A stretch of 63,994 nucleotides of DNA, filler included, from Porpidia crustulata (lineage: Eukaryota): NCBI GenBank assembly GCA_964255105.1. It is 5 parts of 5 records of this genome, joined end to end, with 100 filler letters (N's around TTAATTAATTAA, not from the genome) between each part and the next. Parts side by side here need not be neighbours in the genome. Positions count along the whole stretch, not along the records: positions 1 to 12,853 come from CAXUWE010000477.1; 4 more parts are not named here. One strand, given 5' to 3'. Under the pieces are notes generated by a model that was given only the letters and a program-made list of their open reading frames with translations, had not been told where the DNA came from and did no database searches. Position 1 is the first letter of the stretch. Every line of letters begins with the position of its first letter. The position numbers were made by a program, and so were the translations under genes. Shown here piece by piece: positions 1 through 12,853 of the stretch.

Positions 1-456
1 GGGATTTAGAGGGGCAAAATGGGGGAAGGAGATTCATTGGAAGGTGTTGGGGCTGCGAGTTTGATGGATGCGCCGATCGTGCCTCGAAGAGAATGATATG
101 GTGCTTCTCTTGATATGAAAGCCGTGCCTTGATATCACAAACATCATACTTTAGGCACTCAAAAGACAAATTCTATGCATTCGTGTCACTAACATAAAGA
201 GCGCCATAAAGATGCGTCCCCAATCCCGTCCGTGAAACCAGGGCACCTGTTACTTGCGTCCTATGCGTCAACTTTTACCCAATTAATAGATAGCAGAGCT
301 TGCAGCAACAAGCCAGCCCGCACATTTTTTACCGGTGCCTAACATCCAGCACATACCACTGAGGAAACGCCGGATAGATGATGTTATAGAGTCTCGTATC
401 CTGCCAATCGTTACCCCCAAAGCCCACAGTGGCTTCGTGCGAAACAGGGTTTATCC

Positions 457-3100
457 CTAATTACCTCCTTGCCCAGGCATTGAGTAGACTCCGTTCTGAT
501 AGCTTGGCATCGACTGTCCGTTACCCATGGCTTGTAAATTCATAGAGGCATGAATATTCGTAGGCAAAGAATGCTGAGACTCAGGCATGCTACGTACATC
601 AGGTGGCGGAGGCTTAGGTGGTAGATGGGCCGGCGTTCCCCATTTCGATAGCGAGCTATGGCCCGGCGACTGTGAGTCGTTTGTCTGTGATGATGTTTTC
701 CGTGTTGCATGGGATCTAGGATCTGAGATTGGAGCATAGAGGTTAGGTCCGGGCATTGGTGACATGAAAGGCATGGTTGGAGTCAAGGAAGGCTGTATAT
801 AGGCCGCGGTTTGCTGAACGTAGGATTGATTCTGACTTCCATTGGACATGGGTCTGCTGCCATACGATGTAGTCTGTGGAGAAGCATATCCTGTACTTGG
901 GACGAAGGACCTTGTTTGTGGGTTGAATGCTTGTCGGTTGTAGCTACCAGGAAGAGGATGGGGTGCCTTTCCACCAGGGGTGTGGGATTGGTATGGCAAT
1001 TGTCCGTACTGATAAGGTATAGTAGGTAAAGTACTAGGAGATGGACGATCCTGCATTTGGAGAGGATGCACTGGTTGCTGGTCTCTTGGCTGCTGGTAGG
1101 GGTACGAGTAGCTGTTCTGCGGCCAGGGCTGGTCCACCATTTGAGGCTGAGGGTGAGATAGCTGAGCGTTACTACTAAGGCTTGGTGACGATCTTGCCGG
1201 AGAGTGTTGCCCAGCCATTGTTGGTGGTATTGGCTGGTAATATTGCTGAGGAGTATGCTGATTGTAAACCGCAAAATTGTTATGTTGTCCAGGCATGTTT
1301 GACCCGCCCGCCAATGGACTCTGTTGCATAATCATTGTATATGCTGATGCACTGGGCATGGTATGGTACGCTTGGTTGTATCCCTGCTGATACATGGGGG
1401 GGGTTAGACTGCTTGATGGACTTATGACATTACTTTGTTGTGGACCGTAAGGACTGAAGTACGCTGCTGAATTCCCGGTTTGATCAAAGGTAGTCGTTGG
1501 ATATTGCAAAGATGGATAGTAAGCATTGTACTGTGATCGTGCATGAAACCCATCGTCGTTGTTTCTGTGCTTTTTTGTCTTTTTCTTCTCGTTCGCCGAG
1601 CTGGCACGCGATACTTCATTCGACGGCACGTTTACGGCAGCAGCGTCTCCATCTTCGTTGCTATTCTCAAACCCTTTGAAGATGCGCTCTCTTGTCTCTC
1701 TATACTTTGCTTCTCTCTCCTCACGCGTCATGGAAGCCTTATCCTTTGCGTTGCAAGAGTCAGTCGGCGACACTACACCGGTATCTTGCTGACTACCGTC
1801 CCCAGCTTCGGACCCCGACTTAGATGCAATTATAGAGTTATTGTTAGTAGCGGGTCCCGAATCGGTAGGCTGGCGGTCTTTTCCTAGTCCAGCACGTCGC
1901 ATGATCTTCACAGCTGGCTGCGACGCAGGTGTATGGTCAGTGGTTACAGGAACCCGTGGAATAGCGCTCAAGGGGGTAGGACTTAATCCCGTAATCAGCA
2001 ACAAAGAATTTTATCGGGAGTGGTCCATACTTACATTCGACAATAGGGTGTCCTATACAGTCGTACAGCGCTCACAGCATTATCCACAAAATGGGTCAAA
2101 GCGTAATAATCCGCTAGCTTGTGTGTGAGCAATCGGTAAAATGAATGACAAGATGGTAGGTCGATGATAGGTTCCCTGAGCATTTATTTAGTATTTTTGA
2201 GTGTAAGGTTCTCGCAAACTTACGTTGAATCTTGAACAAATTTGATTATCGTCTCCTCCAGCTGTAAAAGGAAGAAGCGGTCCTTCGGCGATTCTAGAGC
2301 TTCAAATAATTTCTCATCAGGCTCTTGATATTGATACGTGAAGGAAGGTCCATTTGTAGTAATAGCTGGTGTTCCGGGTATAGTGTTTGATGCAATCAGA
2401 GGAACAAGAGGGGCGAGTGACACTTGCTGGCCCTCCTCCAAAATTCCGGGTATAACACGTCGAGTAATGACATTCGAGCGGTGAGGACTGGGGCCTATCC
2501 TCTCAGATATCTCGTAAAACTGATCTCGGAAAGCTCTACTTCCGGCCTCTGATCCCACTCTAGAATTTGCAGTTCCAGAAGCAGGTCCTGAATAGAAGTC
2601 CTCCTCCTCTGCCGCTTTCACGCTGGCACTGTCATCTGGACGAAGAGACTCTTTCTCGTCTAACGCAAAAGCTGTTCCAGATGTGGCGCTCTTGCCATCG
2701 AGGCTGGCAGGCTTTGTGGATGTGGAGGAAACCTGGGTTTGATCGTCATCGAGCTTGTGTCCAGCTTTGACCGTGACATTAGTCTCTTGATTATGATTAA
2801 CGATGGCAATTTGGGTTGATTCCTTCACCGTCAGTCGCGAGATCGAGGTTTGAAGATCCCTTTGCATCTGCGCTGTATGTAGGTTTTCTGGACCAGCCAA
2901 CGTCCGTTTCACGAGCGGCCCCGAAGGCGATGCGTCCGTGGGTTTTATTGTGCCGCCTGCTTGCTTTGTTTTTGCAGGAGCAGCCATTGCTGCAATCTAG
3001 AGTCGCTATCAGCTACTATATCAAGTCACGGAGCAGTATTTGCACATACAGTCGCAAATGAAGGCTTTAGACCAGTCATCGTAGAATTTTGGGTAGCCAT
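457..3100 (-). CDS. R3H + SUZ domain RNA-binding protein (encore/RBS1-like)
   Basis: Spliced exons 3100-3050, 2996-2224, 2175-2035, 1981-457 with GT-AG introns. Exon 3 encodes the R3H core (LPSCHSFYRLLTHKLADYYALTH). SUZ motif MTREEREAKYRETRERIF, then a Q/P/Y-rich tail. The first exon is inferred. Confidence 0.85.
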
Positions 3101-3803
3101 AGCGTACTCGAGACTATTGGCGCATACAAATGAATGATGACGCTCAACGACCGGTCCTTCCTTCGAATTTTGAATCAAATGAGTGTAAAAGTTGGAGTTT
3201 GTAGAATGTAAAAAGGTCAAGGAGAATGCATATCAAAAGCGTCTGACTGCACCGAAAGAGGGTCCTTTGACATTGTGGAGGCTCGCCATGCGTAGTGACC
3301 GAGCTTTCCCGTCTATAGCACCTTTCGACTATAAGTGGTGATTGCTGGAAGTTTCAAAGAGGCACGCTGTCAATACTGACGGTGGGGTAGTTGTAACTTG
3401 GGAACCGCTGGAGTAATGCCGACAGGATTCCAGGTCGCTTGTAGCAAAGGTGGTCAGTGCCTCAAGTCAGGGCTTGAGGAGGAAGGTGGAGAGTTATTGG
3501 AAGCATCAGCCTCAAGAGATGTAGTGGGGATTCACTTCCCAGCACCGTCGCCTAGCCTCTTCCGCCAAGGCGCGCTAGGGCGGGATCGAACCGGCTGTGG
3601 CTCGCTTAGTCATAGCCTTATTGCTCACTTCAACTTCAAAAAAAGGCTGAGCCGCGAAGGGCTTTCTGGACGGCTGAGCTTCATAGGTGTTAAACACATT
3701 ACATTATGCTTCATGACCCTAACCACTTCAAGCTGATGAGAATTGGGCCGCGTACTCATCATCGTTGATATTGTCGTCCTTAGAATCCCGCACTGAATAT
3801 CAA

Positions 3804-5046
3804 ATGAATCGCTACCGTGGACCAACTGCTATCGGACAGTCGAAAGCTACATCACAAACTCTATGCCAAAAATGCTTAAAGCGAGATGAGTTTCCCTGAA
3901 GTTACTAGGCATCTCGTCTCAACTAACACTCTTTACGGCACTACAGTTTCGAATGTAAAACCACTGCGCAGGATAGGCCATATGCTTCGCGACCTTCAAG
4001 AACGCAACAGCTAGCAAATCCTAAACTTCTGCCGAAGCTATCTAGCGATGTCGCAAATGATCTACTTCGAAAGTCAGTTTGGTGCACATATAATCAAGCT
4101 AGAAGATGGACTGACGACTTTCAGAACGGGTGTAGCAGATGAAGAGCTTGCCAAAAAGGAAGCGGAACGTGGCCGAAAACGCAAGGCAGACGAAAATTCC
4201 CCTCTGGATGATTCACAGAAGCGGCCTAGATCTACTTCAACCTCATCTTCAACATCAATATCTACCATCTCTACGAACCTCTCACGCTCACCCAATGCCA
4301 GACATACATCCAAACATCATCCTAGAGGGTACCCTGAATCATCCAAATACAGACAAGCGGTATTTTCCCAACAGGCAGTCCATAAAACTAGGAGCCGGTC
4401 AAGCTTATCAACAATTTCGTATTCATCAGAGTCGTCAGCAGACCGGAGACGCAAGGACCGTTCCAAATATTCGGAACATCGCAGACATTTGTCCACTCAC
4501 AGGAAGGAGCAGAACGCCCGCGGGGCGGGGGGTGGCCTTTTGCGTAGCGCTCCTCGCAAACGCAGGAGAAGTTCTTCCTCCTCATCGCTATCGTATACCT
4601 CAGAATCATCTCATGAAGGTAGAAGGAGAGATATCTCAATGACCGAACACCGAAATACGAGACGTCGGCGATCCTCCATAAGTCCAAAACATCGTGGGCG
4701 AGATAGGAATTTTGATGAGGGAAAAACCAAAAGGAGGCGAAGCCGTAGTAATAGCATGGATAGAAGCCAAGTGGCGCGAAATCGACAATCAATGACTCCA
4801 GGTGCGGCGCCTCGCAGAGATGGGAATCGAAATGGTGCTGGAATTCAAGACCAGCGGCCCACGACAGCTCATGGCCGCCGCTTGTCAAACGATGACGATC
4901 GCTATGGAAGTAGCATCAGGAATCAGGACCACAATGAATCCAGGCGTACTAGGCCCCCGCAGCCACCTTCACCTCGACGGGAAAGAAGTTTAAGCCCGTT
5001 CAGCAAGCGCTTAGCTCTTACCCAAGCAATGAATATGGGACGTTAA
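3804..5046 (+). CDS. Zinc-knuckle (ZCCHC10-like) protein with RS-rich C-terminus
   Basis: Exons 3804-3885, 3937-4072, 4125-5046 give MNRYRGPT...TLCQKCLKRGHYSFECKTTAQDRPYASRPSRTQQL and an Arg/Ser-rich tail ending RERSLSPFSKRLALTQAMNMGR. Intron 1 is AT-AC; intron 2 (4073-4124) is GT-AG. Confidence 0.85.
3886..3936 (+). other. Non-canonical AT-AC spliceosomal intron (U2-like signals)
   Basis: Starts ATGAGT, has branch CTAAC at 3923-3927, ends CTTTAC. It contains an in-frame TGA, and its removal restores CX2CX4HX4C exactly. Confidence 0.75.
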
Positions 5047-5453
5047 CAAGCTTATGCTAGGGTTGGGCGTTCACGCAACAGGGCAATATATGCGACCCGC
5101 GTATCTATGGAAGGTGGCGTTTTTGGCTCGTTCCCTTCCTTTGAAGGCAGGTCATTGTGTCAATGAAGAATGGAGTACAATGTTTACTGTCTACCAGGAC
5201 TTGGTATGGGATTTCCTGACTGAAGAGCTCACGTAGGTTGGACTTTGCATAATATTAGCAGCCTTTTGAGTATCACAAATCATTCTCATTAAGAGTCTTT
5301 CCTGTAACCCATTTCTGTTATCACTCGCGTTCCAGACCCTCCCACCAGACGCCACGCTAAATCGCAGTATGTCCAATCTTTGTAGTAGTCCCTATTCCCA
5401 GAGGTTTGGAGACCTGCGAGCCGTTTGCAGCAAAAACTCAAGGTTTGGACGTA

Positions 5454-6116
5454 TCAAACCAATTCCTCATCCTCCTCCCTCTCCTTCCTCTCGTCTTCCT
5501 CTTCCTCCTTTTCCCTCACATGCACTCCTTGTACCAATTCTTCCCCCTTCATTCCCACTTCTTCCCCAACTACACCCCTCTCACCTTGTGCCCCGGCTTT
5601 CCTCTTTGCGGTCTCAACCCTCTCCCTCACCAATCGCGCAATAGCATTATCGGTCCTCGTATTCAGTCGTTCCATTTTCTTCTCCAGATCTCGCTTTAAA
5701 TCCCAATTGGGTTTCTTGGGCTGCAGCTTGAATAGATCAATCGGCTTCTCTTCTCGCTCCTCCTGCTCCGCTAGAACGTGCGTCTCTTGCGCGATTTGCG
5801 TCGCTCGATCTTCTAGCGTCTCTTGGTCTTCTGTAGGGGCTGCTTCGAAACCGAGCTTGGGACCTCGAGTGGTAGGGTCATAGTTTCGCCCGGAGAGGTA
5901 GGTTGTAGTTACTGAAGGCGGGTCGGAGGCTTCTATTAGTGTTTGTGTTGATGTATTTGACAGCCCAAAGGCTTGAGGTAGGTCGCGAGAGTTTGCCTGA
6001 GGAGGTTCAATCTCAGAGTAGCTCTCGGGCTGCTTGCGTTTAAGGGATTTCAGCTTTGCGAGGCGGAGTTTGCGTTCCGTAGCGGCTGCATCGAGTGAGA
6101 TGTGTGCGGAGGCCAT
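5454..6116 (-). CDS. cwf18: Pre-mRNA splicing factor Cwf18 (CCDC12 family)
   Basis: Motifs ERKLRLAKLKSLKRK, SGRNYDP and DLFKLQPKKPNWDLKRDLEKKMERLNTRTDNAIARLVRER; ATG at 6116. Confidence 0.92.
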   Translation of the reverse strand: MASAHISLDAAATERKLRLAKLKSLKRKQPESYSEIEPPQANSRDLPQAFGLSNTSTQTLIEASDPPSVTTTYLSGRNYDPTTRGPKLGFEAAPTEDQETLEDRATQIAQETHVLAEQEEREEKPIDLFKLQPKKPNWDLKRDLEKKMERLNTRTDNAIARLVRERVETAKRKAGAQGERGVVGEEVGMKGEELVQGVHVREKEEEEDERKEREEDEELV

Positions 6117-6378
6117 CTTGAACAAATTTTCCCAAATGGCTGCCACAGCTAAGATAACTAGAGCCACATAGGAAACTGGGGGAAATGATTCGGCCCCGCC
6201 ATTCCAGTGAAAGTTGATGTTAAGATCACGCCCACGTGAAGCTGCTAAGGTAGTGCACGGGCCACCAACATTTGCTGCTATGGAAACATATTTCTAATAC
6301 GATTATATACTTGCTTCAACTACAAAGGATTGATGAGCGTTGGGAGGAATCTCCGTCTGGGAATGGGACTTTGCTTCT

Positions 6379-8586
6379 ATGCTCGCACGTAATGTCCATA
6401 CGCTTCAGTTTTTAACGAGTTTGAACTCGACGCGACAAGTAGCAATCAGTCCACCGTTGCGCCGTTATACATTTCCTACTAGACAGCCCGCCGGAGAAGG
6501 GAGAGTAGCAAAGACCGACGACGTGAAAGACAAAGCTGTGACCTCAGGAACGCAGCAAAGCCTGAGAACGCCTAGAGCGCGGGCCTGCGCAAGTGCACCA
6601 CAAAAACGTCACAAGTTCGGGGACCCAAGATTAGTCGAAAGTTTGGGATCCATAGTGGACAACGGCAAACCGATACTCAAGCTAATAGTACCCGAGCGGG
6701 TTCAATTCAAGTCGTTGAGGCTTTGGAACACCACGGATCAGGGCAATGAGAATCAAGATTGTGTCGCTTCGTTGTCGACAGACTGGTCAACGAAGTATGC
6801 CGCTATATCGGAGACTAGGATCGAACAGCACCTCTTCGACGTTCATGAAGATCTCATAGGACTTCTTCTTGGTCGTTCCAATGATAGGGATGCCACCGTC
6901 AAGTCGTGGATGCTGATTCCACCCTCGATACGTGAGAGGTACTGGCATACAATGATGCTCTGGGCACTACGGAACAGCCCAGAGCGAGCGTTAAAGCTGC
7001 TCGATGCCTCCATCGTTACACCTCAACTCAGGCCTGCGAGACATGTCGTTGAGGATTGCTTGAACTACCTCACTACATTCTACCTCAAGAAAAGTTCAGT
7101 AGATCCACTTATCGTTGACACTCTTCTTCGCCTCGTTTGCAATTTTGCAGAAGCATCTGCGGCAAGATCAGCGGGCTTCTCCTCATTTCCACAACCTGCT
7201 GTATATCTGCTCCTCCAGCATTGCAAAGGTCAAGAGATCGAAGCTCTCTTTGCGACTTTGTGCAGACACAATATGACATTACACCCGTTTACATTGTTTC
7301 ACTTTTTAGGGAAATTTGTTGACATGGGAAAGATTGAGCTGTCATTGGAGATACTACGCCATCTTGTTATTACCAGTGCTAATTTTACTTCCGATATATT
7401 TCAAAGTGCATGCGTCAAGCTGTTGCGAGGCCCAGTCCATACAGAAAATAGGTACAACATTCAATCCAGCATTCTCACGCAAGTCCTTGAGGCTGGGATA
7501 CGCCCAGGTATCATCATGTGCAATGTGATCATTCTCAACGCTATCGAGGCCGGTGATTATCAGACCGCTTGGCACATGTTTGATCTGGCCCGCGAGAACG
7601 GCCTTAGACCCGACGCAACTACATACTCCATTATGTTGAAAGGCGTAAAAAGCAACTCGAATTTCGACATTATTGACCATGTCATCCATAACGCCGAGGG
7701 GCAGGGCCACCTACCACAAGATAGATGGCTTGTTGGAGATGTGCTTCACGCTATGTTTATCAAAGAGCTGGTTCGAAATCAAGAAAACCCGTTCACCGCT
7801 CTACTTCGAATTTATACCCGGTACTGTGACGTTGGTCCTCTTCGCGATTTGAGCTTAATATCTGACATCGTTAAAACTCCGCTCAACTTCAGACGCCAGG
7901 TGCAAAGCCCATCTTCTTGGACTATCGGCCTCATGATTATGGCGTATATCAAGCAACATCAGGATTCAGCTCACTTAGCGCAGCGGTACACACGATACCA
8001 TAAGCTAGTCGTTGAAGGTCACTCACTACTTGCGCCGACCGCGCAAGGCGACTATATTTACAATGCTTTTATTTTGGCTCTCGGTCGGAGGCCTCAATCT
8101 CTAAGATATTGTGTGGATGTGATCAAGGATATGTTGCCATCCCCAAGGGAAGTTCATGATGCTAAGCCTATCAAGGTAGCTATACCCACTGTGAGAACAT
8201 GGTCGATTCTTGCTGCCGCTTACTTCCATCATGGGCAACAACTTGCCGCTAAAAAAGTGCTCAAAATGATGGAAGCTCGGGGACTGCGACCGAATCAAGT
8301 TACGTGGAACATCATCATCGGCGGTTACTCCAAACTACAAGATGTCGATAGTGCTGTACAGGCCGTGAAGGACATGGAGGCAGCAGGCTTCGAAGCTGAT
8401 GCTCATACGTTGAAAGGCTTGGGAAGGTTCCAGGATCGTAGCCGTATGCTAGAGGCTCTGAAGAAAGCTACTAAACTGGAGGAAGGAGCAGAGTATGGGG
8501 CCAGCAATCCTATAGGTAGCTCTACATCTAGAGAAGGGGCGCCGGAGCAACAGCCCGGGATGAATTACCAATTAGGTCTTGCATGA
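6379..8586 (+). CDS. Pentatricopeptide repeat (PPR) protein, probably mitochondrial
   Basis: Tandem 35-aa PPR motifs (MCNVIILNAIEAGDYQTAWHMFDLARENGLRPDATTYSIMLKG; TWSILAAAYFHHGQQLAAKKVLKMMEARGLRPNQVTWNIIIGGY). First ATG at 6379 with a basic N-terminus. Confidence 0.88.
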   Translation: MLARNVHTLQFLTSLNSTRQVAISPPLRRYTFPTRQPAGEGRVAKTDDVKDKAVTSGTQQSLRTPRARACASAPQKRHKFGDPRLVESLGSIVDNGKPILKLIVPERVQFKSLRLWNTTDQGNENQDCVASLSTDWSTKYAAISETRIEQHLFDVHEDLIGLLLGRSNDRDATVKSWMLIPPSIRERYWHTMMLWALRNSPERALKLLDASIVTPQLRPARHVVEDCLNYLTTFYLKKSSVDPLIVDTLLRLVCNFAEASAARSAGFSSFPQPAVYLLLQHCKGQEIEALFATLCRHNMTLHPFTLFHFLGKFVDMGKIELSLEILRHLVITSANFTSDIFQSACVKLLRGPVHTENRYNIQSSILTQVLEAGIRPGIIMCNVIILNAIEAGDYQTAWHMFDLARENGLRPDATTYSIMLKGVKSNSNFDIIDHVIHNAEGQGHLPQDRWLVGDVLHAMFIKELVRNQENPFTALLRIYTRYCDVGPLRDLSLISDIVKTPLNFRRQVQSPSSWTIGLMIMAYIKQHQDSAHLAQRYTRYHKLVVEGHSLLAPTAQGDYIYNAFILALGRRPQSLRYCVDVIKDMLPSPREVHDAKPIKVAIPTVRTWSILAAAYFHHGQQLAAKKVLKMMEARGLRPNQVTWNIIIGGYSKLQDVDSAVQAVKDMEAAGFEADAHTLKGLGRFQDRSRMLEALKKATKLEEGAEYGASNPIGSSTSREGAPEQQPGMNYQLGLA

Positions 8587-10270
8587 CCTCTACCGCGAAA
8601 CCACTCACGCTGACCTGAGTTGTGAAATCGCCATTCTAATACGCTGACTGACAATCGGGAGTGGTATGGATCAAAACAGATACATATTCTGGGCTGGTAC
8701 CTGGTACTTCCCCGATGACCAAGATGAATCGCTCCAACGAAGATAAGAAAACCATGTGGTTCAACGAAAAAGCTTCTTGGTCGGAATCGAGTTATGTGCC
8801 AGTGAAGTGTTCACCATCTTAGAGGAATGGTCAATACAACGTAGTGCAGCACATACGCATGCCGCTGAGAATTGTTGCTACTGGTTGAAGCAATAGAGTT
8901 CTGGATACTCACAGACACTGCAGGGTTTGTTAATTTCTGAATGTACTCGAAACTGCTATACTTGCAGGCTCGACTTTCATCATTACCTGGTAATAACATT
9001 GTCTTCGAATACCTATGCGATCTTCGTCCATGCGATATCCGACTGCTCGGATGGAGAATTTACATCCGCACCCAACCACTAACCCTCGTCGTTAGCCATG
9101 ATCCCAACAGTTCTGGCTCGGGAAAACCCGGGCGTCTCTCAGGACACAAAGACAAAATCTCCAGAACATGGGATATTCTTTGGAGCAGATGAGCGAAGAC
9201 TTTACTTACACGCAGCGCGCTCGCGAGCCCCTACAAAAGAGGCTAAATTAGGATAGACGATACCGTGTCCAAGAAACGACGCTCGTGGCTGAGGCTGTGG
9301 AAATCGTAAGAGTATTAGGACAACGAGTAACAAGAGTCAAATCTTGGCCAGGCCTTCGCAACATAGCATGAGCGGGTTCTTTTTCGAGCCATGATGTCAC
9401 TTAGTCTCTTGTGGCCAATTTTTGTCCAACTCATGCCCAGGTCATGTTGTTGGTTTCACCATCAAGGATCGAACACACCTTGATCGCAGTCCTTGGTCCC
9501 TTTGAATCTTAAGGCGATAAAAGTTACGCCAACGCAGACAGGATTTGATATGTTATCTAAATTCTAAGCCGCTGCGTCAGGAACTGTTGGCCACTAGAAT
9601 TAGGCAATCACTCGGATTGCATAGGAGGGCTTATTTGATTAAGAAGTGGTAGTATTTTTCATATCGGTGATTCCTCCGAGGTCATATGAAACTATGCAGT
9701 ATACAAGACTATTAGGCTTATTTGCGTGGGGGCACTTGGCAGCTTCCACACAAACTAGACTTTACTTTGCCGTGGACTGGCACTAGGGAGAAGAGGGAAC
9801 TGTTTCATTCCCAAATCATGTGTTACCATGCGAGCTATTCCTGCCGGGCTCCTCCCTGCTCTTCTACGGTGTCTCCGACAAGTACAGGCCGAAAGGAGCG
9901 AAGTCTCAATATGAGCCCAATAGAGATTGCGGTTATCATTATCTCGATCACGGGTTCATCCACGACACCAAACTTTCTGTAGTGGAGTCAACTTTAGTCC
10001 CTCAAAAAGCTCGGAATCTTGTCGTGCCCATTGAGGTCCACTGTGGAACCCAACGTCTTACACTTTCGCAAGTATGCTTAGAAACATCCGAAATTACCAA
10101 CCGATCTGAACACATGCTTCTTACGAATGAAGTGTCTATGCCTTCATTATGCGTAATTTGTGCAAGATACCCTTTATATCGTCAGCAGTCCCCATGGATT
10201 CTTGTGCTCAGCAGATTGTCTCAGTACGGTTAGAACAACTCAAAATCACTTGAAGACTGTCACAAGGACC

Positions 10271-11672
10271 ATGTATACATTTACCTCCTTCCATCTTATC
10301 ACTAGCTTGATTTGCACGTCCTTGGTGCTCACGTCTTCCATCGACTTTCCTACAGGGGAACAAAAACGACAGTACACTAATTGCACTGATCTAGGCGAGC
10401 CGTTCGACGAGAGCTGCTGGCACACTCTTGATATTGCCGGGTATCTTCACAACTGGAACCAGACTATAACTATCTGCACGAGAAATCAAACCGCTTGTTG
10501 TAAGCCTACGGAGCCGTGGACAACCTGTTTCCTCCGACTCGCGCACGGAAGGCCTGGCAGTGACTGTAGTGAGATCAACCCCCAATTTTGTTCTTACGAT
10601 CCTACTTTAAAGAATGGTATCGATCAGACGACCGCGCCTCAGGTTCAATACGTAGTCAAAAACATTTACGGTAATTGCCTTGTCAAAGTCGAAATTGTAA
10701 TTGATACTGAGTTTTGCTTCAACAGCCATCAATGACTTCTTTTCAAGCTGGTTCAACGCTCTGGGTCACGCAACTGCGCAGGCCCAACTCATAGTGTCTC
10801 CCGTGATCAACGAACTGGACCCTCCGATAGCGTGTTGGTTCGTCCTAAGAGACGTCTTCTTCGCGCTCGCTCTTGGCCTCGCCTTTATAGCAGGACCGGA
10901 GGCCGCCGGCGTTACTGGCCTACTAGCTGCGACTGCAACTTCTGGCAGAGCTCTGCTCAAAGGGCTACAGCAAACACCCACCATGGGTCGTGGAATATGG
11001 CCGGCCGGGACCGAAAGCTCGAAATCAATCCAAATCGGTGACATGAACACCGAGCTCAACGATGCTACTGGCCAGCTGTCACAAATTATAAACGCTGGTC
11101 TGGAGGTGCTGATGACAGATATGCCATCTTTCGTTACTTTTGCCCAGACTGGCTACTTCTCTGGCTCTCAATCTCTTTCTCTTGCCAAGGAAACCGATGG
11201 TCTCGATATGGGTCTCCGTACCTTTATACTCTCTAACGTCATGGTCTCCAACGGATGGCACGCACATGCTATCGCGAACATTAGCAGAGCCCAGGTCGCA
11301 AAAACGAACATGGACTGCAAATGGAATGGCGACATGTGCGGCGATATCATCTGGTACAGCGGCGCGACCCAGCGCTCCTACGCCATCACGACGAATGGCG
11401 GCGAGCTCTCCACAGCGCAGCTGCTCAAAGACATCGGCGATAATGATTGGTCGACTCTACCGCTGCTGTTCGATGGTGCGTACAGTTGCACAGTCGCAGG
11501 CAATATGGGGAAGTCGCCGAGCTTCATCCACGCTGATGGGACCATTGATATGGATTGCATGTCGCAATTCAAGCTCTGTATTGGGTGCGGCAGTGAGTGC
11601 CCCGTGGCGCTGATCGACGGTCAATGCCCCTTTCCGCCTTGCATGGCAAAGGCAGATGGGAGCTGTTATTGA
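10271..11672 (+). CDS. Secreted cysteine-rich protein of unknown function
   Basis: Signal-like N-terminus MYTFTSFHLITSLICTSLVLTS plus a KR site. GT-AG intron 10671-10725 joins the two ORFs in frame (YVVKNIY/AINDFF). Cys clusters at both ends. Confidence 0.8.
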
Positions 11673-12599
11673 GGGATGAAAGATTGGCCTTTGATCGAGT
11701 GTCAGGGAGGTGATTTATGCAGTTTCCAGGCAACAAATTCCCCAAATTCTGAGCGGCTTTAGCCACAGGTGGAAGATCTACTCGGTGGATACCCCCGATC
11801 ACAAGAAATGGCCCTGAAATCCTTGATCTCTACACCGCGTATGGGTGAAACAGATTCGAGAATTGGGGCTGTCTTTTTTCCCCCTAGTATCCAAGCATTA
11901 CATGGACGCCCCATTGCCCCTTTCCCCTTCCATCCAGCCCTATCAAACACACGCTCTCAGTCACCTCGTCGAACCTGCAGCTTTTGGTTCATTCCATCGT
12001 CATTCCAAGACCTCTGAGCTTATTTAACCAGTCTAAGACCCCAGCATCACATAGAAGAATCGTCGAGATTGGCCCGGGGAAGTGGCGTTAAAGAAGCGCC
12101 GTGGCGATATAGATTATTAGCTTCTAAGACACATGCGAATAGAAAGACCTTGACAACCACCACTCATCGCGCCCGCACCGTGGTTTGCGCGGACCTTTGT
12201 CAGCCGCTTAAAGGCTTATCTATAAATCGGAAACATGTAAATGGACCGTCAGGAACCCTTTCAGCCAGCATACTTGATGAGAGGATCTAGCAGCCGAAAC
12301 CGTGCGAACCCCTGACAGGTGGCGGCAAAAGCTCCCTTGAACTTGTGCAGCGTCTCTCTAGCCCTGTCAAGGAATGATGAGTCGGGAGAACAGTTGAGGC
12401 CTGCCACCAACTGCCTGAATAGTTCTTCCTGCTCCTCATCCGCGATCCCCAGCCGAGGAATGGTCTGTCGCGCTTGTTCAGTCATGCTTTCGCCAGCAGC
12501 CACCCTCTTTCCTGCAGACGTTCCCGAAACCCGACGCTCCGTCTCAATCCTACTCTCTCGGCGCCCATGAAACTCCTCCCCAACATCCAGAAGACATCC

Positions 12600-12738
12600 T
12601 CAGCCGGCTACAGTAGCCGCTTTAATCATTTCCGCCACAAGATCCGGCTTGCTGATAATAGCCATATGCCCCGCCTCCACGTGTTCAATCTGGCAGCCGG
12701 CCATCTCGCCCATCTGGAGTTGTAGATCCTTTGGTAAC
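12600..12738 (-). CDS. Last exon of an alpha/beta-hydrolase fold protein (rest lost at the contig break)
   Basis: Translates LPKDLQLQMGEMAGCQIEHVEAGHMAIISKPDLVAEMIKAATVAG*, a typical catalytic-His region (AGH). Preceded by branch CTGAC and an AAG acceptor. Confidence 0.65.
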
Positions 12739-12853
12739 CTTGACCAGGGGTATGGAAGTCAGTGGGAATTATCGGGCACACAGAGATAGAGATTAGGCGA
12801 AGAGGTTGCAGCCTGGAGGTCGGAAGGTGGGGCTTGGCGGGGGACAGAGAATC

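Follow-up and report, generated by a model that had tools for sequence, protein, structure and literature searches.

A probable, widely conserved U2-type AT-AC intron interrupts the zinc knuckle of a ZCCHC10-like gene in Porpidia crustulata and other fungi

We examined a stretch of 63,994 nucleotides (nt; filler included) of the genome of Porpidia crustulata (assembly GCA_964255105.1), called the window below, in which five parts of five records are joined end to end with 100 filler letters between them; positions count along the whole window, and positions 1 to 12,853 come from CAXUWE010000477.1. The subject of this work is a three-exon gene on its plus strand that resembles ZCCHC10, and whose first putative intron begins with AT and ends with AC. 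This intron, its canonical rival and the parts of the gene are as follows:

3804..3885, plus strand: exon 1 of the ZCCHC10-like gene, from the ATG to the first base of a split Gly codon (MNRYRGPTAIGQSKATSQTLCQKCLKR + G)
3886..3936, plus strand: AT-AC intron, phase 1, 51 nt, with donor ATGAGT, branch CTAAC and 3' end TTTAC
3890..3946, plus strand: rival canonical pair GTTTCC...TACAG, 57 nt, in frame, deleting Gly-His
3937..4072, plus strand: exon 2 (GG + HYSFECKTTAQDRPYASRPSRTQQLANPKLLPKLSSDVANDLLR + AA), with Pfam PF13917
4073..4124, plus strand: intron 2, GT-AG, 52 nt (GTCAGT...ACTGAC...TTTCAG)
4125..5046, plus strand: exon 3, an Arg/Ser-rich tail of 306 residues, ending ...RSLSPFSKRLALTQAMNMGR, with the stop TAA at 5044-5046

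The intron begins with ATGAGTTTCCCTGA at 3886 and ends with AACTAACACTCTTTAC at 3936, its AT lying at 3886-3887 and its AC at 3935-3936. Together with the end of exon 1, the donor ATGAGT (3886-3891) reads AG/ATGAGT (a slash marks an exon border), which equals AG/GTGAGT at all positions except +1. A branch-like CTAAC is found at 3923-3927; its A, at 3926, precedes the last intron base by 10 nt, and the 3' end TTTAC occupies 3932-3936. Exon 1 ends at 3885 with TGC CAA AAA TGC TTA AAG CGA G, and exon 2 opens at 3937 with GG CAC TAC AGT TTC GAA TGT, the frame from 3939 reading HYSFECKTTAQDRPYASRPSRTQQL... Joining 3885 to 3937 gives CGA G/GG CAC (...AAGCGAG/GGCACTAC...) and yields CQKCLKRGHYSFEC, an intact CX2CX4HX4C zinc knuckle. 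Only the 3886/3936 borders restore both this motif and the open frame. Without splicing, the frame from the ATG at 3804 gives MNRYRGPTAIGQSKATSQTLCQKCLKRDEFP and then a TGA stop after ...DEFP, as an earlier note on this DNA had said it would. Because AG is absent from 3909-3944 and a TAA lies in frame within 3909-3938, no AG acceptor can keep the His codon. The same note had pointed to the GT-AG pair at 3890-3946, which is indeed there, 57 nt long, in frame and without Gly-His; its description of the end of exon 1, the intron ends, the branch and the start of exon 2 proved exact to the base when reread. One sequencing run contains the stretch (X1; contigs, DNA depth about 10); it is letter-identical over 3000-7000 and may be the assembly's own source.

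The predicted protein has 379 amino acids. Exon 1 encodes the first two Cys of the knuckle, and exon 2 encodes its His and last Cys together with a conserved RPSRTQQL segment. Exon 2 alone passes the gathering score of the Pfam family zf-CCHC_3 (PF13917), with 42.9 bits against a cut-off of 27 (E 4.6e-11, profile positions 15-41), which places the product in the zf-CCHC_3/ZCCHC10-like family; exon 1 matches profile positions 2-14 with E 0.0072, below the cut-off. As the two halves meet between positions 14 and 15, no residue is missing between the exons. The C, C, G, H and C of the knuckle are invariant in 37 intact relatives (alignment A2), and the N-terminus resembles those of relatives, such as MNRYRGPTAIGQSKATPQTLCQKCLKR in the metagenome locus L001. 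The family profile matched no solved structure.

Scanning metagenome contigs with an alignment of the knuckle region gave 161 pattern matches, of which 103 were confirmed and the best 80 loci were fetched; the variant counts in this work rest on these. We set aside L079 (a false hit), L039 and L073 (both cut off upstream) and L010 (in which the search motif is off by one base). L039 and L073 read ...AC/G before the His codon, and L010 has the same AT...AC. With the window, the other 76 loci represent 54 distinct variants of exon 1 end, intron and exon 2 start. At the same phase 1 site in the Gly codon, 39 variants have an AT-AC intron, 2 AT-AA, 4 GT-AG and 9 no intron, and neither AT-AG nor GT-AC occurs among the 54. 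Orthologues with conserved AT..AC termini, which the earlier note had proposed to look for, are thus abundant: 41 of the 54 variants are AT-AC or AT-AA at the identical position. Among the 45 distinct intron-bearing variants, the 41 with AT...A[C/A] borders represent a recurrence far beyond chance, and the covariation of the first and last base (AT-AC or GT-AG, never mixed) is the signature of a real splice pair. When 14 variants from different groups are aligned, G/AT..GT, AC/G and the flanking codons are invariant and the interior of the intron is free. The eight loci closest to the window gene, L001-L008, all read G/ATAAGT...CTAC/GG.

A quick-method tree, combined with cluster names, places AT-AC carriers in the Lecanoro-, Eurotio-, Leotio-, Dothideo- and Sordariomycetes. 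The window gene pairs with L001 (Shimodaira-Hasegawa-like approximate likelihood ratio test, SH-aLRT, 98) inside a lichen-fungus clade (95), a position from which we conclude that it comes from a lecanoromycete. Besides this lecanoromycete clade, AT-AC loci adjoin Thermoascus (SH-aLRT 99), with Aspergillus and Penicillium; they occur in a leotiomycete clade (96), next to Mytilinidion among the Dothideomycetes (98), and in a group (97) with the cluster names Stachybotrys, Fusarium, Hypoxylon and Xylariaceae. The Sordariomycetes correspond to the 'NVQCQKC' protein group; the 'MFRRPG' protein group had also been a candidate for this class and was rejected, since the tree groups it with Lindgomyces (Dothideomycetes). 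Public models from Penicillium salamii, Emergomyces, Lepidopterella and Glutinoglossum probably retain the intron in frame, their protein pattern CLKR-D-[KMT]...x-R-H being what G/AT...AC/GN would encode.

Two leotiomycete-like variants (L029; L057/L065) carry the AT-AA form, with ATATGT...ATGCAA/GC and ATACGT...CTTTAA/GC, and the AC form is still visible in the read-through frame of a close relative of an AT-AA variant (P0167 against P0164). AT-AA is otherwise a rare variant of U12-type introns.

The splice signals of the 41 AT introns point to the major spliceosome. Their donors are ATATGT (20), ATAAGT (9), ATGAGT (5), ATAGGT (4), ATAGGA (2) and ATACGT (1), all U2-like AT[AG]NG[TA], with T at +2, A or G at +3 and G at +5 in every variant and T at +6 in 39; the donor ATATCC occurs in none of the 41. 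In 36 a CTRAY branch is found, always with its A 10-12 nt from the 3' end, and 39 of the 41 have a pyrimidine at position -3. The second-last exon base (-2) is A in 40 of the 41 AT-intron variants versus 3 of the 9 intron-less ones, a bias that fits selection for AG/ pairing with U1. All 41 introns are 46-59 nt long, and their lengths modulo 3 divide 14/14/13. Intron 2 serves as a control: all 36 detected copies are GT-AG, their lengths differ threefold (45-146 nt) and their branch A lies 7-19 nt from the 3' end.

A U2-type AT-AC intron is one whose donor matches the U2 consensus except at +1 (Sheth et al., 2006, PMC1557818), and the donor consensus reported for the class is /ATAAGT (PMC5029451). 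The window intron has the AT and AC ends and follows the donor consensus at all positions but +1, which makes it a probable member of this class, also called type II. The sequence quoted as the U12 donor is /ATATCCTT (PMC5029451), and the window donor, ATGAGTTT, matches neither this nor /GTATCCTT. Nor does the branch region resemble the U12 box TCCTTAAC: the box is TCAACTAAC in the window and GCTGAC-like in most relatives, although its distance of 10 nt fits. The consensus U12 branch box lies 10-15 nt from the 3' end and contains TCCTT. A search of the whole 64-kilobase window (1-63994) gave no Rfam match at the gathering score, and hence neither transfer RNA nor small nuclear RNA (snRNA) genes. 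U12 snRNAs and U12 introns have been reported missing in Ascomycota/Pezizomycotina (PMC2846911). These signals, together with that reported absence, suggest that the intron is handled by the major spliceosome. The earlier note had drawn the same two lines, a U2-type donor and branch in place of U12 ATATCC, and filamentous ascomycetes without a U12 spliceosome, and both agree with the counts above (+5 G in 41 of 41, ATATCC in 0 of 41) and with PMC2846911.

Evidence on splicing comes from relatives. P0328, a protein of 291 amino acids from one contig of 953 nt, corresponds to locus L050 spliced at ATATGT...AACCAC (51 nt) and at a GT-AG intron 2 of 90 nt, with agreement at 290 of 291 residues. 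From ATG to stop, L050 spans 1017 nt in genomic DNA against the 953 nt of the P0328 contig, and P0328 therefore stems from a template without introns. P0328 and L050 were the only same-species pair of spliced protein and genomic locus found. In Fusarium graminearum, an RNA sequencing (RNA-seq) study lists AT-AC introns in two genes and includes a 52-nt AT-AC intron in FGSG_10073, with primers listed for Sanger confirmation (Zhao et al., 2013, PMC3577648); its text states that seven such genes of its figure were confirmed by Sanger sequencing. The FGSG_10073 reverse primer encodes HGGRHQ, a motif confined, within about 395 stored proteins, to nine Fusarium members of the family, P0243 of F. graminearum being one of them, and FGSG_10073 is therefore the orthologue. 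The forward primer, which fits none of the stored proteins in any frame, may be located in the untranslated leader. The central proposal of the earlier note, a natural AT-AC intron, is thus carried by positional conservation, by base covariation, by the intron-free P0328 template and by the F. graminearum RNA-seq and Sanger record.

The junction is a frequent source of error in public gene models, as had been predicted. None of nine models from named lecanoromycetes keeps the knuckle, and three of the nine show the exact GT-AG mis-call, recognisable by the motif CLKRDxYEC (P0018, P0034, P0065). Mis-called models read CLKRDNFEC in Sticta, CLKKDDYEC in Squamulea and CLKRDIYEC in Icmadophila and several species of Aspergillus and Penicillium. 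Intact models make up 55 of 157 cluster representatives; another 95, mostly unspliced frames, are broken, and the His motif is absent from the remaining 7. A set of 91 further proteins, mostly from Eurotiales, Leotiomycetes and Dothideomycetes, comprises 79 intact models and 12 that are not (8 mis-calls and 4 retentions). In one cluster of Fusarium models, 5 of 15 are intact and 10 do not keep the knuckle. Many pipelines, notably for Aspergillus, give the intact protein, and the junction is therefore already implicit in public records.

Our data lead us to conclude that 3886-3936 is very probably a constitutively removed U2-type (type II) AT-AC intron in a gene for a ZCCHC10-like, Arg/Ser-rich knuckle protein. 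The sequence itself, its conservation, the covariation and the mis-annotation are established here, and use at the RNA level was demonstrated elsewhere, in the Fusarium orthologue. In the mechanism that we propose, the donor would be recognised like any fungal donor, through exon AG/ and ATGAGT, with a mismatch at +1 only, followed by the usual CTRAY branch and a pyrimidine-AC 3' site 10 nt beyond the branch A. During the second splicing step, the first intron base, A, would pair non-canonically with the terminal C, as G does with G in normal introns, and such A/C pairing would leave the AG 10 nt further on without productive use. We read the fixed branch spacing in the same way: as no AG marks the site, the AC may have to be presented at a set distance.

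Several points weigh against this conclusion. Splicing in P. crustulata itself is predicted, the run that covers the gene consisting of DNA contigs only, and the RNA origin of P0328 is a deduction from lengths that appears in no record. Many of the 'intact' public models may have been built by homology, not from RNA. The intron site estimated for FGSG_10073 is 7 nt off, across assembly and model versions, and carries no weight here. Shared descent keeps the 54 variants from counting as independent cases, and the four GT-AG loci, which are long or short rows in the tree, may be either ancestral or derived. Finally, a branch spacing of 10-12 nt (36 of 36) and AT-AC or AT-AA ends are also traits of U12-type introns.

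Among the alternatives, the one that survives best, though we regard it as very unlikely, is that the gene uses the canonical GT at 3890 and AG at 3946, alone or as a regulated choice, to make a protein without the knuckle. The window does contain this pair, in frame, and automatic models of relatives use it (P0018, P0034 and P0065, 8 of the 91 further proteins and 7 of the 157 representatives). However, GTTTCC is a poor donor, its GT being the +5 and +6 bases of ATGAGT, and the rival AG belongs to an AGY serine codon, replaced by TCN in 7 of the 41 variants. Only 12 of these 41 have the pair in frame, introns of all three length classes modulo 3 being about equally represented, and Gly-His is invariant in the 37 intact proteins. 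Moreover, AT-AC is the junction used both in P0328, the spliced template, and in the RNA data from Fusarium. The earlier note had also entertained a switch between knuckle-plus and knuckle-minus isoforms; this idea does not fit a rival pair that so few variants share in frame or a Gly-His that never varies, and a knuckle-minus form may exist as a minor local by-product.

We consider it highly improbable that the element is a U12-type AT-AC intron, or a recent convert still handled by parts of a minor spliceosome. Its AT-AC and AT-AA ends are what this view expects, as is a branch A held at 10-12 nt where the GT-AG intron 2 allows 7-19 nt, and 20 of the 41 donors begin with ATAT. Yet ATATCC itself is missing from all 41, G at +5 and T at +6 follow the U2 consensus, and the CTRAY branch lacks the TCCTT that marks the U12 box. 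The lineage is, in addition, one in which U12 snRNAs and introns are reported missing (PMC2846911). The fixed branch spacing keeps alive, at long odds, the thought that the intron is a relic of the U12 type. An assembly or sequencing error, or a decaying pseudogene without a knuckle, is close to refuted: non-canonical ends are a classic sign of error and a single, possibly non-independent DNA data set covers the site, but these ends are repeated in 41 distinct variants, drawn from many contigs and studies, and also in the closest loci, L001-L008, and each of the three exons is open and conserved.

With the U2-type AT-AC intron as the preferred interpretation, the same odd ends at one position in five classes of Pezizomycotina suggest that the intron is old. 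On the simplest reading, the site underwent a double change long ago, or the AT-AC intron is itself old, and harmful single reversions then held it in place. Single changes, to GT-AC or AT-AG, would cripple splicing and so let the intron persist, and escapes would be rare, through a double change to GT-AG or a clean loss of the intron. The tree requires at least nine state changes. Three of the nine intron-1-less variants, from four loci (L030/L035, which form one variant, L033 and L068), keep a GT-AG intron 2, and L067 and L077 have intron-like sequence after exon 2; these loci are therefore genomic and represent true losses of intron 1. In L041 and L058 both introns are absent, on long contigs.

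In the intron-1-less loci just named, the Arg/Lys codon before the junction has lost its final A (CGC, CGT, TTT, AAG), which would fit a relaxed constraint on the exon AG/. GT-AG introns at the exact phase 1 site occur in L075 (GTATGA..ACAG), L076 (GTCAGG..CCAG), L078 (GTAATG..ACAG) and L080 (GTTGGT..CCAG), and L078 and L080 group with Cladosporium on long branches.

We also considered a more adventurous possibility, which we find doubtful: that the odd ends are more than a frozen accident. In one version, a U12-type AT-AC intron may have outlived the loss of the minor spliceosome by acquiring a U2-type donor and branch, keeping its ends and the 10-12 nt spacing. In the other, a slow, proofreading-sensitive second step may link the output of the Arg/Ser-rich knuckle protein to the performance of the spliceosome, making the intron a reporter of it. 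Either would explain why AT-AC, the branch spacing and exon AG/ have been held across five classes while intron 2 drifts. For human ZCCHC10, the listed interactors include the spliceosomal protein FRA10AC1 (PMC10048706). This link makes an autoregulatory role, by analogy, worth testing, though it is not yet supported.

The nearest known system is FGSG_10073 of F. graminearum, an orthologous gene with the same AT-AC ends and an intron of 52 nt against 51 nt here. In its earlier canonical model the acceptor lay 3 nt further upstream, which recalls the TAGAAC/ end of L071, a sordariomycete-like locus. The Fusarium gene differs in belonging to another fungal class and in being documented in supplementary tables only, and the parts of PMC3577648 drawn on here do not state its ZCCHC10 identity, its U2-type class or its conservation. 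The U2-type AT-AC introns of animals (SCN4A/SCN5A) share the AT and AC ends, the /ATAAGT-like donor, use of the major spliceosome and long-conserved borders (PMC1557818). Sheth et al. (2006, PMC1557818) counted 15 such introns in human, 6 in mouse, 3 in fly and none in worm or Arabidopsis. In contrast to these, the fungal intron is short (46-59 nt) with CTRAY fixed 10-12 nt from its 3' end, its hosts are reported to lack a minor spliceosome, and its site also exists in natural GT-AG, AT-AA and intron-less states.

That the fungal major spliceosome is able to splice /AT...AC/ is known from yeast, where an engineered intron with A at its first and C at its last position is spliced (Parker and Siliciano, 1993, cited in PMC5029451) and where RPL30 of Saccharomyces cerevisiae has a minor AT-AC junction (PMC5029451). 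The former is an artificial construct and the latter a side product of 1-2% with an atypical donor (PMC5029451), whereas the window intron would provide the sole productive junction of a conserved gene. U12-type AT-AC introns have in common with the fungal family the terminal dinucleotides, the rare AT-AA variant and a short, fixed distance from branch to 3' end; their ATATCC donor and U12 box are both absent from it. Human ZCCHC10, which we compared by the shared Pfam domain only, has the same single N-terminal CX2CX4HX4C PF13917 knuckle and a low-complexity, Ser-rich tail.

In the literature that we searched (on AT-AC and U2-type introns in fungi and on ZCCHC10, with most supplements and subscription journals outside its scope), the intron is nowhere described as conserved, and ZCCHC10 is nowhere linked to AT-AC, U12 or minor introns. 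The class is known already and the junction of the Fusarium orthologue stands in a supplement of 2013, while the conservation and the tie to ZCCHC10 were found in no description searched. U2-type AT-AC introns are among the rarest of intron classes, with a few dozen known in animals (PMC1557818). The present one is a natural, deeply conserved case in a lineage reported to be without a minor spliceosome, so that its splicing has presumably fallen to the major spliceosome for a very long time. A series of states at one site (AT-AC, AT-AA, GT-AG and clean loss), with an internal control intron, suits the study of the joint influence that the two terminal intron bases and the branch spacing have in setting the 3' site. 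On the practical side, a fixed rule for the ZCCHC10-like gene would correct many annotations.

The Arg/Ser-rich tail encoded by exon 3 (4125-5046) is covered by no Pfam family, and its short islands STISTN, DRYG and RSLSPFSKRLALTQAMN are conserved across classes. Such an Arg/Ser-rich composition is typical of splicing-related RS proteins. A search with exon 3 found 598 relatives among 8000 scored candidates, with a best identity of 64%; the best species-named relatives, models from Lobaria immixta and Sticta canariensis, are about 50% identical. The closest relatives of the window gene (exon 3 64%) are L001-L008, eight contigs from eight metagenome assemblies with a near-identical gene and a single intron variant. 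In the seven of these eight loci that pass the coverage filter (L003 is cut short), exon 3 is 98.5-99.4% identical to P0004, and this near-identity indicates that one lichen fungus recurs across those assemblies.

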